NCBI GenBank assembly: GCA_938034975.1
Contig: CALHNI010000005.1
Coordinates: 60,718-124,717 of the forward strand
DNA: 64,000 nucleotides
Reading direction: 5' to 3'
Source: Candidatus Goldiibacteriota bacterium
GTDB taxonomy: Bacteria; Oederibacteriota; PGYV01; DYJU01
This document shows positions 1 to 13,917 of the stretch, piece by piece; the stretch's first letter is position 1; the number at the start of each line of letters is the position of its first letter. A model generated the notes under the pieces. That model was given only the letters and a program-made list of their open reading frames with translations. It made no database searches and was not told the DNA's origin. The translations under genes were made by a program, and so were the position numbers.

Positions 1-2172
1 GTTTTTACAAAAAATTCAGATGCCAGGGTAAAAGCATATGCGCAGTATTTAATCGGAGAATGTTACAGAAAACAAAAGGATTTTAATAAAGCGCTTTTGG
101 CATATGAAAAAGTTATGGAAAATTATAATTCCATATATGATGTTTATTCTTCTGCTTTATTAAAAGCAGGATGGTGCTATATAGTCCTGAAAAATTATGA
201 CAAAGCCGAGAAAGTTTTAAATGAATTCACACAAAAATTTATAACCCATGAAAATATAGCGCTTGGTTATTATTTGATGGGAAATGCCTATTATGAAAGA
301 AAGCAATATCCACAGGCAATCCAAGCATATCAGTTTATATTAAATAAATTCAAATACACCGATATAACAGAAGCAGCACTTTTAATGACAATGCTTACCT
401 ATTATAATCAGGACCAGCTTGCACTTTTGGTAAGTGAAGCATCACATATTCTTGGAGTTTTATCAGGGAAATTTCAGTCACCGAAAAGCAAAATAAGAGC
501 AAGAGCATATTATTATTTAGGACTGGCATATTTTAAAACAGGTATGTTTGGACCTGCAGCACAAGCATTCAATGAAATCATAGAGAAATATTATGATTCT
601 GATATAACAGGCGAAGCAAGAGCAAATCTTGCGTGGTGTTTTTATGAACTTGAAAATTATAAAGCAGCAAGAACAATGGCAAGGGATGTCATATCAGGTG
701 GTATAAAAAATGAAGATGTAAAGCGCGCATGTGAAATTTTGATTGCCCATTCATTTTTTAATGAAAAACAGTATGATAAAGCAACAGCAAGTTATGGAGA
801 ATTTGCTTATAAATATGCAAAGTTAAAAGATCCCAAGGATATAGAATTGGTTGCAGAGGCACTATTTCAGCAGGGAAAAGTTTATGAAATTCAGGAATAT
901 TATATGGATGCGGTAAAATCATGGCAGGCATTATACGATAATTATCCAAAAGCAAAAAGAGCACCTGAGGCATTATATAAAATATCTGATATTTATTTTA
1001 AAGCACAACAATATGATAAAGCAATTGCAGGGTTTCAAAAAATTATTGAAAAATATCCTAATTCTGATGTTGCAGAAGATGCAATGCTTGCAATAGCAGA
1101 AGTTTATTATAATTCGGATCAGGAAGCCAAAGCAGTCCAGGCATATAAGGATTTTATAAAAAAATATCCGGATTCTAATAAAGTAAAAAGTGTGGAAGAC
1201 GGTATGCAAAGAGCAGAATTTAGAAAAGCAGAAAAAAAAGAAGACCCTGAAATGCTTTTACAATTTTTTGAAAAATACCCGCAGAGCAATCTTGCAGTTG
1301 ATGCTATATATAAAGCAGGAGAATTATATTACCAGATAGGAAAATTTGATAAATCCATAAGTGCTTTTAACAAACTTATAGAAGAATTTCCCAATGACAC
1401 ACTTGCTATAAATGCTCACTATTATATTGGTGCATGCTATGAAGAACTAAAAAAGACAGAAGAAGCAATGAACGCATATAAAGCATTTATTAAAAATTAT
1501 CCAAAACACAACTTAACTTCTGATGTTTATTTCAGATTGGCAACAGCAGCGTATTTTAGTAAAAATTATACTGATGCTGCATTTTATTATGAAAGGATTT
1601 TAGAAAAATATCCCGGAACAGAATATGAAAAAAATGCAATGTATAATCTTGCACTCACTTACATGGATTTAAATAAAATGGATGAAGCAATAAGATATTA
1701 TAAATTATTTGTCCAAAAATTTCCTGATGATGAAAAGAGTAAAAAAATACCTGGTCAGATTGCCGGTATATATCTTGAACAAAAAAGATACAATGAGGCA
1801 ATAGCATCTTATCAGGAAATAATAAACAAAGGGACTGAAATAGAAAAATTGGAAGCATATTATAGAATCGGTGATATATATATGAATATAGAAAATACAG
1901 ATAAAGCAATAGAAACATTTTTAAATCTGTTAAATACAAAAGAAAAGAGCAATATTTTCAGAGTTACAGGGCTTATAAATCTTGCATCTTTATATGAAGA
2001 AAAATCTGATTGGAAAAAAGCAGTTAAAATATATGAAGAAATTTCTGTAAGCGGTGGTCTGAAAGAATATGTGGATGGTGCAAAAGCAAGAATTTCAGAA
2101 ATAAAAAATGCATATCCTGATTTATTTAAGGAAAAAAAAGAAACAACAACTAAACCAAAAGAAAAAAAATAA
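1..2172 (+). CDS. TPR-repeat protein, 5' end truncated by the window edge (frame open from nt 1; listed ORF starts at 97)
   Basis: Long ORF with many 34-aa TPR-like repeats (AYY..G.AY....Y.KA motifs). Frame 1 has no stop from nt 1 to the ATG at 97. It sits directly upstream of the exbB/exbD/tonB cluster, as YbgF/CpoB-type TPR proteins often do. Confidence 0.75.
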   Translation, partial: VFTKNSDARVKAYAQYLIGECYRKQKDFNKALLAYEKVMENYNSIYDVYSSALLKAGWCYIVLKNYDKAEKVLNEFTQKFITHENIALGYYLMGNAYYERKQYPQAIQAYQFILNKFKYTDITEAALLMTMLTYYNQDQLALLVSEASHILGVLSGKFQSPKSKIRARAYYYLGLAYFKTGMFGPAAQAFNEIIEKYYDSDITGEARANLAWCFYELENYKAARTMARDVISGGIKNEDVKRACEILIAHSFFNEKQYDKATASYGEFAYKYAKLKDPKDIELVAEALFQQGKVYEIQEYYMDAVKSWQALYDNYPKAKRAPEALYKISDIYFKAQQYDKAIAGFQKIIEKYPNSDVAEDAMLAIAEVYYNSDQEAKAVQAYKDFIKKYPDSNKVKSVEDGMQRAEFRKAEKKEDPEMLLQFFEKYPQSNLAVDAIYKAGELYYQIGKFDKSISAFNKLIEEFPNDTLAINAHYYIGACYEELKKTEEAMNAYKAFIKNYPKHNLTSDVYFRLATAAYFSKNYTDAAFYYERILEKYPGTEYEKNAMYNLALTYMDLNKMDEAIRYYKLFVQKFPDDEKSKKIPGQIAGIYLEQKRYNEAIASYQEIINKGTEIEKLEAYYRIGDIYMNIENTDKAIETFLNLLNTKEKSNIFRVTGLINLASLYEEKSDWKKAVKIYEEISVSGGLKEYVDGAKARISEIKNAYPDLFKEKKETTTKPKEKK

Positions 2173-8626: not shown

Positions 8627-9292
8627 ATGATAAAATTTAATCATGTATTTAAAATTTATGAAAAGAATATAAAAGCACTTGAAGATATAAATTTTTCTAT
8701 ATCAAAAGGAGAATTTGTTTTTTTAACCGGCCCTTCTGGTGCTGGAAAAACAACGATTTTAAATTTATTATACAGGGAAGATATTCCTGACATGGGATCT
8801 GTTTTTGTCAATAATGAAGATATATCGCATATAAGTGATAGAAAACTGCCGTTTTACAGGCGAAACATCGGTTTTGTTTTTCAGGATTTTAAATTATTGT
8901 TTGACAGAACTGTTTTTGATAATATTGCATTACCGCTTGTTATAACCAAAACAGAAAAAAAATTTATAAAAAATAAAGTGGAAGAATATATCAATAAAAC
9001 AGGACTTTGTGGAAAGGAAAAATTAACACCATGGCATTTATCCGGGGGTGAAAAACAAAAAGTAGCAATAGCAAGAGCTTTTATAACAAATCCTTCTTTA
9101 ATACTCGCGGATGAACCAACAGGTAATCTGGATGATGAAAGTTCATGGGAAATAATTAAAATGTTTGAAGAAGTTAATAAAGAAGGGACAACAATATTAT
9201 TTGCAACACACAACAAAGAATTGTTACAAAAAATGAATAAAAGAGTTATAAGATTAAATAAAGGCAAGGTAATATCCGATGAAAGTATTTAA
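8627..9292 (+). CDS. ftsE: cell-division ABC transporter ATP-binding protein FtsE
   Basis: Walker A GPSGAGKTT, signature LSGGEKQ, Walker B ILADEPTGNLD; 221 aa; followed by ftsX. Confidence 0.85.
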   Translation: MIKFNHVFKIYEKNIKALEDINFSISKGEFVFLTGPSGAGKTTILNLLYREDIPDMGSVFVNNEDISHISDRKLPFYRRNIGFVFQDFKLLFDRTVFDNIALPLVITKTEKKFIKNKVEEYINKTGLCGKEKLTPWHLSGGEKQKVAIARAFITNPSLILADEPTGNLDDESSWEIIKMFEEVNKEGTTILFATHNKELLQKMNKRVIRLNKGKVISDESI

Positions 9293-11768: not shown

Positions 11769-12206
11769 ATGGGTATTAATAGTATAAAAATAAAATTTAT
11801 TTTTTTAATTTTTATCTTTATTTCCTGTTCAGAAAATAAAAGATTAAAATATGAATTTGAAAATTACTTATACGGTGAATGGAAAGGTGGCGGCGAACAT
11901 GTGTTTTTTTCCAAAAATCATATTAAATATGATTTATATAAAAAAAATTTATGGTCAATAAGTAAATGGCGTATAATTAAAATAAATAAAAAAAGGAATT
12001 TGATCTATATTAATTTTTATGATATAAAACTTACTGAGGATGCAATAAATTTAAGTAAAAAATACGGGTTACCGATAGAAGGTATTTTAAAGCCTGTTAA
12101 CATTATTTATATTTTTGATGAAAAAAAACAAAAAATAAAAATATTCAAGGGTGGAAATTCTCCTGAAAATATTTTGAAAAAAATAAGTGAAAAACAAAAA
12201 CCTTAA
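11769..12206 (+). CDS. hypothetical lipoprotein
   Basis: 145 aa; signal peptide ending in FISC (lipobox-like); Lys-rich. Confidence 0.5.
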   Translation: MGINSIKIKFIFLIFIFISCSENKRLKYEFENYLYGEWKGGGEHVFFSKNHIKYDLYKKNLWSISKWRIIKINKKRNLIYINFYDIKLTEDAINLSKKYGLPIEGILKPVNIIYIFDEKKQKIKIFKGGNSPENILKKISEKQKP

Positions 12207-12223: not shown

Positions 12224-12640
12224 ATGAATGATTTTGGGATGGCTTTAGCAATTTCATGGAAAATTATTGAATCTTCGCTTTTATCTTTAATTGTCGCTGG
12301 TAGTATTTATTTGTGTATTATTTATTTTTTTGAAAAAAAGGATGAAGAAGGCAGAAAAAATGAAAAGATGCGCATAGAATTTGAAAGAAAAATTGCTAAT
12401 TTTACAAAAAATCTGATTTTGCCGCTTGCATTTTTAATTTTTGTTGGGTTGTATGGTAAAACACCAGTAATAGGGAAGATGATGTTAATATTAACAGCAG
12501 GTTCAATCTCTGCATCTAATCTTGCTGTTTTACTGAAAAAAGTTTTTGGACTTGAAAAAGAAGGAGAAACATTCTGGATACTATTTATCATTTGTTATTG
12601 TTTAATAATGTATATTTTAATAGGGGAAATTATTAAATAG
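12224..12640 (+). CDS. hypothetical membrane protein
   Basis: 138 aa with 3-4 hydrophobic helices. GGGAGG RBS. Confidence 0.45.
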   Translation: MNDFGMALAISWKIIESSLLSLIVAGSIYLCIIYFFEKKDEEGRKNEKMRIEFERKIANFTKNLILPLAFLIFVGLYGKTPVIGKMMLILTAGSISASNLAVLLKKVFGLEKEGETFWILFIICYCLIMYILIGEIIK

Positions 12641-12693
12641 TAAAAAAATATTCCTATAAAAATATAAAGAATAAAAGCAGTAAAAATAAAAAA

Positions 12694-12721
12694 GGCAACC
12701 ATTATTAGGTTGCCTTTTTTT
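12694..12721. terminator. bidirectional Rho-independent terminator (ggcaacc-attatta-ggttgcc flanked by A- and T-runs)
   Basis: 7-bp GC-containing stem 12694-12714 followed by T7 (12715-12721) on + and, after reverse-complementing, a T-run on - as well. Lies between the 3' ends of convergent gene 12224-12640 (+) and tRNA-fMet (-). Confidence 0.6.
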
Positions 12722-12723
12722 AT

Positions 12724-12798
12724 TGGTTGCGGGGGTTGGATTTGAACCAACGACCTCTGGGTTATGAGCCCAACGAGCTACCACTGCTCCACCCCGCG
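12724..12798 (-). tRNA. initiator tRNA-fMet (anticodon CAU), 75 nt with encoded CCA
   Basis: Reverse complement reads CGCGGGGTGGAGCAGTGGTAGCTCGTTGGGCTCATAACCCAGAGGTCGTTGGTTCAAATCCAACCCCCGCAACCA. It has the C1xA72 mismatch, three consecutive G-C pairs in the anticodon stem (GGG/CCC) and a CAU anticodon, all initiator hallmarks. Confidence 0.9.
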
Positions 12799-12869
12799 AT
12801 TTATTTAATTTGCACTCTGCTATTTTTAATAATTAAGAACCATATATAATATTATTATGCTGACCTAAC

Positions 12870-13066
12870 CTGTGGGGGTTGGATTTAGCCGCTACGCCGC
12901 TAGAAAGCGGCTACGCGTCTCCTGCTCGTCCTGCTGACGGCCGCATTATGATTCCTTTGGAAACTGCGGCCTTATCCTTCGGCGCAGGACTCGCCTTCGT
13001 CCTTACGGACTCAGCCAACGACCTCTGGGTTATGAGCCCAACGAACTACCACTGCTCCACCCCGCG
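12870..13066 (-). ncRNA. second tRNA-fMet paralog interrupted by a 128-nt GC-rich insertion (12887-13014) at T-loop positions 54-56. Intron-like element, novel structured RNA or disrupted pseudogene.
   Basis: The 5' 53 nt are identical to the neighbouring tRNA-fMet except one D-stem change (C->U, still pairs as G-U). The 3' part AAAUCCAACCCCCACAGG retains the T-stem 3' strand and acceptor, but with a G70->A change and no encoded CCA. Between them, the 128-nt insert (about 60% GC in a roughly 30% GC genome) replaces exactly UUC (54-56). The same 16-bp 5' flank (aattaaataaat) precedes both copies. Confidence 0.6.
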
Positions 13067-13103
13067 ATTTATTTAATTCTTTTACATCTTTTAATGAACC
13101 ATA

Positions 13104-13192
13104 TGGTGCCGGGAGCCGGAGTTGAACCGGCATGGAGGGTGAGCTCCCGTGGATTTTAAGTCCACTACGTCTACCAATTTCGTCATCCCGGC
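13104..13192 (-). tRNA. tRNA-Leu (anticodon UAA), 89 nt with a long variable arm and encoded CCA
   Basis: Reverse complement reads GCCGGGATGACGAAATTGGTAGACGTAGTGGACTTAAAATCCACGGGAGCTCACCCTCCATGCCGGTTCAACTCCGGCTCCCGGCACCA. Anticodon loop CUUAAAA; type II variable arm. Confidence 0.85.
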
Positions 13193-13209
13193 TATTATTT
13201 TGTTTTAAA

Positions 13210-13237
13210 ATTATAACAAATAAATTTTTTCTGTCAA
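13210..13237 (-). promoter_or_regulatory. sigma70 promoter on the minus strand for the tRNA-Leu/fMet*/fMet operon: TTGACA-N16-TATAAT
   Basis: On the minus strand the sequence reads cattcTTGACAgaaaaaatttatttgtTATAATttt. The -35 is at 13237..13232 and the -10 at 13215..13210. The tRNA-Leu 5' end is at 13192. Palindrome B (13251-13284) lies 13 nt upstream of the -35. Confidence 0.6.
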
Positions 13238-13250
13238 GAATGAATAACTT

Positions 13251-13433
13251 CCGTAAAAAAGCATTAGAAAATGCGTTTTTACGGAAAAAAATATTTTTAT
13301 TTTTATAAGTCATTACTTTTATTTACCCGTTTTTTATTTAAAATAAAACGCAAGAGTTTAATTTCTTTAATAATATTTTTTTTGTATGTTTTTCTCATGG
13401 AAATCGCAATCTTTTAATAATGAGATTTTCAGG
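13251..13433 (-). repeat. intergenic composite repeat, copy R1 (A'-D-B), reverse orientation
   Basis: Palindrome B variant 13251-13284 (ccgtaaaaaagcattagaaaatgcgtttttacgg), reverse module D around 13300-13345 (gtcattacttttatttacccgttttttatttaaaat) and reverse A'-like palindrome 13399-13433 (ggaaatcgcaatcttttaataatgagattttcagg). Confidence 0.8.
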
Positions 13434-13497
13434 AACTTGAAATAAAAAAAATTTTATGTAAATATATTTTAAAAAATAAGATAAAGGAGTAATAAAA

Positions 13498-13917
13498 ATG
13501 GTAAAAACAAAAACAATTTTATTAAATACAGGTGGAAATACGGATATTATAGATATTACTGAAAAAGTAGAAAAGTTTATAAAAGAATCAGAAATAAAAA
13601 GTGGCATAGTAACAGTTTTTGTTCCAGGATCAACTGGTGGTATTACAACTGTTGAGTATGAACCAGGTTTAATTAAAGATTTAAAGGATATTTTTGAAAA
13701 ATTATTTCCATATAGAGCAAACTGGGCACATAATGCAACATGGGGTGATGGTAATGGTGCATCTCATATAAGGGCTTCTTTTATAGGACCTTCAATTACT
13801 ATTCCGTTTGTAGATAGTGAAATGACTCTTGGAACATGGCAGCAAATTGTTTTTATTGATTTTGATACAAGAGCAAGAACTAGAAAATTGATAGTACAAA
13901 TAATAGGAGAAAAATAA
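13498..13917 (+). CDS. YjbQ/UPF0047-family protein (secondary thiamine-phosphate synthase-like)
   Basis: 139 aa with conserved motifs (T.S.TGG.T..E.E.G...D........P.....W.HN...GDGNG.SH..A...G.S...P......LGTWQ.I.F.DFD....R.R). AAGGAG RBS. Confidence 0.7.
   Translation: MVKTKTILLNTGGNTDIIDITEKVEKFIKESEIKSGIVTVFVPGSTGGITTVEYEPGLIKDLKDIFEKLFPYRANWAHNATWGDGNGASHIRASFIGPSITIPFVDSEMTLGTWQQIVFIDFDTRARTRKLIVQIIGEK

Follow-up and report, generated by a model that had tools for sequence, protein, structure and literature searches.

Bacterial tRNA genes are strikingly uniform, and reviews give introns of group I or group II in the anticodon loop, at position 37/38, as their sole known interruptions (PMC4033280). 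We describe here a 64-kb window (the whole stretch of DNA that was analysed, from a Candidatus Goldiibacteriota contig; all coordinates are those of the window) in which a second, tandem copy of the initiator tRNA gene, tRNA-fMet, is interrupted in its T-loop by 128 nt of GC-rich DNA. Other bacterial RNA genes carry intervening sequences (IVSs): those of 23S and 16S rRNA are ~100-200 nt, replace a hairpin loop, occur sporadically among close relatives and are of obscure origin. An rRNA IVS forms one long helix from its paired ends and is excised by RNase III, and a functional fragmented rRNA remains. Rickettsia palindromic elements and yeast mitochondrial GC clusters are multi-copy, GC-rich, palindromic selfish elements of AT-rich genomes, and tRNA T-loops are classic targets of integrases.

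The interrupted gene is probably a tandem initiator-tRNA paralog that was inactivated by insertion into its T-loop and is carried along as a co-transcribed pseudogene or spacer in a tRNA-Leu/tRNA-fMet operon. A T-loop intron or a tRNA-scaffolded RNA would, if true, be a new category, because only the anticodon-loop group I and II introns are known to interrupt bacterial tRNA genes (PMC4033280). The evidence instead indicates an ordinary process of duplication, insertional inactivation, partial gene conversion and lineage-specific decay.

Anatomy of the interrupted tRNA-fMet copy

The operon is read on the minus strand, in the order promoter, tRNA-Leu(UAA), interrupted tRNA-fMet copy, intact tRNA-fMet and terminator, and comprises the following features:

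13210-13237, minus strand: predicted sigma-70 promoter of the tRNA operon (TTGACA, 16-nt spacer, TG extension, TATAAT; 12/12 consensus match)
13104-13192, minus strand: intact tRNA-Leu(UAA), CCA encoded (ARAGORN; Rfam, 56.5 bits)
13067-13078, minus strand: 12-nt 5' leader AATTAAATAAAT, the same as the leader of the intact fMet copy (repeat D1)
13015-13066, minus strand: 5' part of the interrupted tRNA-fMet, 51/52 identical to the intact copy
12887-13014, minus strand: GC-rich insert of 128 nt in place of U54-U55-C56 (GC 0.598)
12870-12886, minus strand: 3' remnant of the interrupted tRNA-fMet, 16/17 identical to the intact copy
12851-12869, minus strand: degenerate copy of the first arm of the fMet terminator (GTTAGGTCAGCATAATAAT versus AGGCAACCTAATAAT; repeat D7)
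12724-12798, minus strand: intact initiator tRNA-fMet, CCA encoded (ARAGORN; Rfam, 66.2 bits)
12688-12720, both strands: bidirectional intrinsic terminator closing the operon (13-bp stem, T-runs on either strand)

A first-pass annotation, made from the letters of the window, had placed two tRNA-fMet genes in tandem on the minus strand with the canonical one at 12724-12798, which ARAGORN and Rfam both recognize. Repeat D1 (13015-13078 versus 12747-12810) unites the 12-nt leader with the 5' half of the tRNA and is identical at 63 of 64 positions. The sharing of the 5' flank and of 53 nt of tRNA that had been proposed is therefore real, although the tRNA stretch is 52 nt in linear count and ends at G53 in tRNA numbering. 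Its lone change, C to T, had been called compensated; it actually turns a D-stem G:C pair into G:U, which is tolerated as a wobble. The 5' part covers the acceptor 5' strand, the D arm, the CAU anticodon arm, the variable loop and the T-stem 5' strand. Its anticodon region, GGGCUCAUAACCC, with CAU and three consecutive G:C pairs, is the same as in the intact copy, as would be expected of a copy that is recent or gene-converted.

The two copies part immediately 3' of the T-stem 5' strand (GTTGG). From there the insert (13014-12887) stands for TTC, after which the tRNA continues as AAATCCAACCCCCACAG (12886-12870); alignment confirms the break, the 128-nt replacement of U54-U55-C56 and the resumption, all as first annotated. 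The 3' remnant consists of AAAU of the T-loop, the T-stem 3' strand and the acceptor 3' strand with G70 changed to A. It ends in ...CACAGGTT, with G73 and without an encoded CCA, which all three intact tRNA genes of the window (Leu, fMet and Gly) do encode. Both the G70-to-A change and the missing CCA had been read correctly, as acceptor pairing and sequence agree. The pairs C1xA72, G2:C71 and C3:G70 are determinants for the formylation of initiator tRNA. The interrupted copy keeps the first two, and its C3 lies opposite A70. The intact gene has C1xA72 and the three G:C pairs of the anticodon stem, and its sequence is the same in the relatives represented by contigs L008, L013 and L094 and in the part present in L093. 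Across the whole window the interrupted copy was called neither by ARAGORN nor by Rfam at the gathering threshold, and at a relaxed E≤10 Rfam gave only a 16-bit partial tRNA match. Set against a functional initiator tRNA, it has the expected anticodon region and lacks both the 7-nt T-loop with U54-U55-C56 and an intact acceptor end with CCA.

The first-pass annotation had offered an intron-like element as one candidate. In order to evaluate a new element that is spliced by itself or by protein and yields a functional initiator tRNA, 168 hypothetical excisions were made with ends within a few bases of both junctions, and the products were run through ARAGORN. The boundaries of the insert fall at the T-stem end, the flanking tRNA parts are near intact, and 22 of the 168 products were accepted as tRNA-Met. 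However, none of the 168 restored the U54-U55-C56 T-loop, the loops obtained being CUAAAU, CUUAAAU, CUGAAAU and similar. A strict bulge-helix-bulge (BHB) motif (helix, 3-nt bulge, 4-bp helix, 3-nt bulge, helix) was absent within ±9 nt of either junction, and relaxed forms were present in 500/500 shuffles. The covariance-model search that had been proposed found no Rfam family at E≤10 in either a 651-nt query or a 143-nt insert segment, be it group I, group II, a small ribozyme or any other non-coding RNA (ncRNA). For the whole window, Rfam at the gathering threshold and the E≤10 runs returned tRNA hits and chance-level matches only.

The individual classes fare no better. For a group I intron, the T-loop site, the length of 128 nt, the lack of an Intron_gpI match at E≤10 and the lack of a restoring excision all disagree, and the last exon base before the insert reads G, not U. 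To our knowledge the smallest self-splicing group I tRNA intron is that of Azoarcus, ~205 nt, and the insert is far under this size. No family match at E≤10 was found on either strand for the domain V/VI signature of group II, nor was one found at E≤10 for hammerhead, twister, pistol, hatchet or hepatitis delta virus-like ribozymes. The segment CUGA-[GUCC GUAA GGAC]-GAA superficially resembles a hammerhead, but it is without the N7-G8-A9 core bases and has no Rfam support, and this candidate was rejected. The version of the locus in the sister lineage, described below, has no 5' exon at all. Since no excision restores UUC, C3 faces A70, CCA is missing and neither a BHB motif nor an Rfam family was found, it is very unlikely that the interrupted copy yields a working tRNA, and we regard a spliced intron-like element as highly improbable.

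Transcription of the dead copy is predicted from its position. The promoter at 13237-13210 is the sole strong minus-strand promoter predicted within 12600-13500 and is kept in the two contigs of the sister lineage, L007 and L098. Between it and the terminator at 12720-12688 we found no further minus-strand promoter or terminator signal. A single promoter and a single terminator imply that the interrupted copy is co-transcribed with its neighbours, which upholds the annotated promoter, bidirectional terminator and expectation of transcription. An AT-rich spacer of 71 nt separates the interrupted copy from the intact tRNA-fMet. At the start of this spacer, the degenerate terminator arm (12851-12869), kept in L007 as GGTTAATTTGGCATAATAA, shows that the original duplication unit took in the 3' flank.

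The genes flanking the operon are housekeeping genes and two lineage-specific open reading frames (ORFs): FtsX, M23 peptidase, the two ORFs, YjbQ, MnmG and RlmN. The two ORFs are adjacent on the plus strand (11769-12206 and 12224-12640), encode 145 and 138 aa without a Pfam match, and also stand beside the tRNA cluster in relatives. The 138-aa protein has four homologue clusters only among 5.8 billion proteins, all within this narrow clade. Just upstream of the tRNA-Leu promoter, at 13249-13286, lies a 17-nt inverted repeat (TTCCGTAAAAAAGCATT / AATGCGTTTTTACGGAA; 94% complementary, 4-nt loop), which could be an operator or a terminator of upstream transcription. A Logan contig, L002, terminates inside it, at 13255.

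Relatives and the age of the insertion

By its MnmG, the organism falls among uncultured metagenome-assembled genomes labelled Goldbacteria. Relatives were obtained by protein-guided contig retrieval, which gave four lineages, and by a YjbQ synteny scan of GTDB genomes. The closest lineage is represented by L007 and L098, which come from two independent samples and differ by one single-nucleotide polymorphism (SNP) in 314 nt; its MnmG and YjbQ are 88% identical to those of the window. A metagenome-assembled genome (MAG) named AS07-7 (L013, L094) follows with MnmG 86% and YjbQ 84% identical, and L008-L010 with MnmG 80% identical to that of the window lineage. In both L008-L010 and AS07-7, a spacer of 18-22 nt leads from tRNA-Leu to the one tRNA-fMet gene, which is intact, and the insert is absent. 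Among the retrieved contigs only L007 and L098 hold a homologue of the insert; L093 and L097 end short of it. The YjbQ scan of GTDB genomes found one close relative only, without the insert.

In L007 and L098 a homologue of insert positions 76-128 (12939-12887) lies between tRNA-Leu and tRNA-fMet, and nhmmer finds this match independently. It is followed by TTAAATCCAGCC and GGTTAATTTGGCATAATAA, which correspond to the T-arm remnant and the degenerate terminator arm of the window. The 5' half of the tRNA, the first two helices of the insert (H1 and H2, described below) and the acceptor 3' strand are lacking. The insertion is restricted to a shallow clade, being shared by the window and L007/L098 and absent in the next outgroups, so both the duplication and the insertion would have occurred in the common ancestor of the two lineages, and the L007/L098 lineage appears to have later deleted more than half of the element.

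These relatives also date the event. Four-fold degenerate sites are 47-50% identical between the window and L007, and the GC content of third codon positions (GC3) is ~0.2. Because the insertion predates the split from a lineage with 88% identical MnmG and such diverged four-fold sites, it is not very recent. Of the annotation's candidates, the "very recent" insertional pseudogene thus fits best as to the pseudogene and fails as to its age. Absence of the insert from sibling genomes together with a lack of covarying structure had been named as the outcome expected of a simple pseudogene. This is largely what the relatives present: the insert is absent in two outgroup lineages, partial in the sister lineage, and without demonstrable covariation.

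Tandem tRNA copies break short-read assemblies exactly at the repeat, and all short-read assemblies of this organism do break at the tRNA cluster. The interrupted gene might be an assembly chimera, in which reads were mis-joined across the repeated tRNA sequence. An independent k=31 Logan contig of the same sample, L001, matches the window with 100% identity and stops at 12776, which is exactly the last 31-mer before a shared 30-mer branches into G (the intact copy) or A (the interrupted copy). The second 5' half also has a SNP of its own, and two other samples have the T-arm remnant and the homologous 3' portion of the insert at the same place. An exact look-up of two ORFs spanning the insert junctions, meant to find independent assemblies, returned no record. 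Given the end of L001 at the branch point and the orthologous remnant in two other samples, a chimera is very unlikely.

The retrieved contigs showed several further differences around the cluster. At L007:6340-6366 (L098 ~45-71, minus strand) a GC-rich palindromic hairpin, ATCCCTTCGGAATTCCGAAATCGGGAT, lies just 5' of tRNA-fMet and has no counterpart in the window. L093 belongs to the sister lineage and has, between its 138-aa ORF and the terminator of tRNA-fMet, a 297-aa gene (2065-2958) that the window lacks at this place; the terminator sequence, GCCCGTTTAAAATACGGGC, also differs from that of the window. With respect to YjbQ and the 138-aa gene on its flanks, the tRNA-Leu/fMet cluster of L008 (5463-5644), L009 (4424-4605) and L010 (4446-4627) has the opposite orientation to that in the window, L007 and L013. 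The contig L013 (DYJU01000007.1) is labelled 'Candidatus Methylomirabilis sp.', a label that looks doubtful, as its nearest named MAGs by MnmG are Goldbacteria.

AS07-7 also harbors a multi-copy repeat of ~260-390 nt with the motif GTCATTGCGAGGAAGC...GAAGCAATCT.GCAG. Its copies are 73-85% identical and lie at L005:6900-7290, 8740-8997 and 9081-9140, at L094:4483-4740 (equal to L013:3081-3338) and at L094:6233-6314; one stands directly after the tRNA-fMet terminator. The repeat has 39% GC versus 31% for the locus, matches no Rfam family at the gathering threshold and is absent from the window and L007. It was considered as kin of the insert and rejected, being unrelated in sequence and not in the window.

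Fold, conservation and source of the insert

The GC content of the insert is 59.8% versus 28.9% in the window, in agreement with the roughly 60% and 30% first noted. No GC island in the 64 kb is stronger, and only the three tRNA genes form further islands above 0.55. The hairpins and direct repeats that had been named are present, and internal direct repeats exceed those of dinucleotide shuffles (5-mers, 23 versus 11; P = 0.0015). This excess fits growth by local duplication or slippage as well as descent from a repeat-built element, and proves neither. Folded alone, the insert has a minimum free energy (MFE) of -57.5 kcal/mol with z = -3.9, and forms three hairpin domains: H1 (13010-12999; GUCC-GUAA-GGAC), H2 (12994-12924; a long bipartite hairpin) and H3 (12920-12887). 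Its ends do not pair with one another.

Several observations weigh against a plain pseudogene. The insert folds far better than chance, with none of 200 shuffles as stable, and its GC helices are near-perfect. Such a fold is unexpected under neutral drift, because GC3 is near 0.2 in this genome and the insert is older than a split with a silent-site divergence of ~50%. The window and L007 have 63 nt in common that are 73% identical, ungapped and 60% GC in both; by our own arithmetic this identity lies ~3.6 standard deviations above the silent-site rate. Selection might also explain why the 5' half is so nearly identical, and we found no donor for the insert, so that the insertion event itself is a matter of inference. 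The excess of 73% over 47-50% points either to constraint or to a spacer that was exchanged more recently by way of the tRNA genes on its flanks, which are near-identical.

Constraint would be expected if the locus encoded a functional structured RNA, in which the 128-nt domain of three hairpins sits atop the T-stem and is selected for a non-decoding role. The tRNA-like 5' part would provide an RNase P-defined 5' end and stability. The whole interrupted gene folds at z = -3.25, and when its cloverleaf stems are imposed the three hairpins still form on the T-stem, at 4.1 kcal/mol above the MFE; the unconstrained MFE, however, loses the cloverleaf. Transcription would be guaranteed by the position between the predicted promoter and terminator. 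The sister lineage nevertheless persists in two samples without H1, H2 and the tRNA 5' half, and its remnant folds at z = -0.46, no better than chance. Four of the 11 H3 pairs of the window are broken in L007 and none is compensated. An alternative helix has one compensatory pair (CCGC/GCGG versus CCUC/GAGG), which 251 of 500 shuffles equal, and RNAalifold on the two lineages favours yet another weak fold. As only two lineages are available, the shuffle controls for covariation are uninformative. No other copy or homologue was found anywhere that was searched, and the identity of the leaders, discussed next, suggests gene conversion rather than selection. The annotated candidate of a tRNA-scaffolded ncRNA thus has the fold and the elevated identity of the shared part in its favour and is in our judgement unlikely. 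More specifically, the T-stem may be the platform of the insert, which would be a new structured RNA domain or else a GC-rich selfish element of low copy number, and the whole a selected and stable tRNA-scaffolded ncRNA. Selection of this kind would account for the z of -3.9, the kept 60% GC and the 73% versus ~48% silent-site identity, and we deem it somewhat less likely still.

The leader of the intact tRNA-fMet differs between lineages, yet within the window both copies share it exactly, which indicates gene conversion or a recent, perhaps partial, re-duplication. The 3' flank of the dead copy only loosely resembles that of the intact copy. This pattern fits a 5' half that owes its near-identity to conversion by the live copy, with a tract that would stop at the non-homologous insert, rather than to selection.

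We therefore return to an inactivated paralog and propose the following order of events. The common ancestor of the window and L007/L098 lineages would have duplicated tRNA-fMet in tandem together with part of its terminator. The upstream copy would then have acquired, between G53 and the rest of the T-loop, a GC-rich, repeat-rich and strongly self-pairing sequence of ~128 bp. In the L007 lineage a later deletion may have taken ~75 nt from the start of the insert along with the 5' half of the tRNA, the remainder drifting. In the window lineage, gene conversion would have kept the leader and 5' half near-identical to the downstream copy as far as the insert, beyond which the short 3' piece drifted (G70 to A, loss of CCA). 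Today, transcription from the single promoter is predicted to read through the dead copy to the intact tRNA-fMet. Processing would free tRNA-Leu and tRNA-fMet, and the intervening piece of ~270 nt would be discarded or be merely a stable by-product.

The source of the insert is a separate matter. Genome collections were scanned by exact k-mer matching, and further copies were looked for within the window and the fetched loci. No second copy, even a diverged one, was found in the window or in the fetched loci, and distant blastn of the insert against plasmids and phages gave no credible match. An exact 23-mer of the insert had no hit in 185,579 GTDB species genomes, and three insert k-mers and a gapped pattern of a T-loop-interrupted fMet gene had none in IMG/VR. 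In JGI metagenomes, a degenerate 25-mer kept in the window and L007 gave one chance hit (L012), in high-GC coding DNA. The proposed search with the insert alone thus gave no recurrence elsewhere, in the window, the loci, plasmids, phages or the k-mer scans.

The insert may possibly derive from a small non-autonomous mobile element, whole or fragmentary, of the kind of a miniature inverted-repeat transposable element (MITE) or palindromic GC cluster; it may also be a scar left when an integrase-borne element targeted the T-loop. This tentative origin bears on where the insert came from and can be combined with the pseudogene. In its favour are a GC-rich composition within an AT-rich genome, many hairpins, including subterminal ones, and the excess of internal direct repeats. 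The T-loop site of the insert is a classic integrase target, and the relative AS07-7 carries its multi-copy repeat, though unrelated in sequence, beside the same tRNA cluster. Terminal inverted repeats, however, are absent, the ends showing at most a 2-nt GG duplication as read from the sequence, and the searches above yielded no second copy in the 64 kb, the 185,579 species genomes, IMG/VR, plasmids or phages. Neither an integrase nor a transposase was found among the genes flanking the operon. In an island scar an intact tRNA would be followed by DNA of the element and then by its own 3' end as a direct repeat, and an integrase gene would lie nearby. Here the order is reversed: the interrupted copy lies upstream of the intact one and both have 5' halves, unlike an attL/attR pattern.

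A coding origin was also considered. A plus-strand frame is open across the insert, and its translation matched a WG-repeat protein with E = 1.8e-4 among 1.84 billion proteins, as might be expected of a captured fragment of a foreign protein-coding gene. Four alignments of the same 22 residues, to successive repeats, add up to this score; by itself the best segment reaches 23.9 bits, and ~6.6e5 such matches are expected by chance in that library. Even at E≤10 there is no match to the WG_beta_rep Pfam profile. We rejected this origin, which has next to no likelihood, as an artefact of summed repeats.

Comparison with known systems

The locus most resembles tRNA pseudogenes and disrupted copies in tandem arrays. 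A redundant paralog with damaged identity elements stands beside an intact copy, is missed by tRNA finders, is patchy among close relatives and has decayed further in the sister lineage. It differs from them in its damage, a single clean swap of three T-loop bases for 128 nt of GC-rich, strongly folding sequence, and in that the dead copy is necessarily transcribed and has a 5' half near-identical to the live one. Where gene conversion keeps half of it pristine, a dead tRNA copy can pass for one that is 'alive'.

Group I introns, and rarely group II introns, interrupt bacterial tRNA genes such as cyanobacterial tRNA-fMet and tRNA-Leu(UAA), and here too a bacterial tRNA-fMet is interrupted, beside a tRNA-Leu(UAA). 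Known bacterial tRNA introns lie at 37/38 in the anticodon loop (PMC4033280), are ~200 nt or more, have a P1-P9 core and leave a perfect tRNA. In contrast, the insert lies in the T-loop, is 128 nt long, matches no family and permits no legal T-loop. A short intervening sequence in the T-arm recalls the introns at non-canonical sites of archaeal and red-algal tRNAs, in which a splicing endonuclease cuts a BHB motif; the insert has no strict BHB, and its host is a bacterial initiator tRNA (C1xA72).

Like the rRNA IVSs, the insert is a structured segment that replaces the loop of a conserved hairpin and occurs sporadically in close relatives. Unlike them, its ends are unpaired with each other and its host RNA is otherwise damaged. 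With the Rickettsia palindromic elements and yeast GC clusters it shares a compact, GC-rich hairpin insertion within a gene for a structured product in an AT-rich genome, whereas it lacks their repetition, as no second copy appeared in anything searched. The oddity that remains beside these systems is an orphan 128-mer, GC-rich and strongly folding, in a genome of 29% GC.

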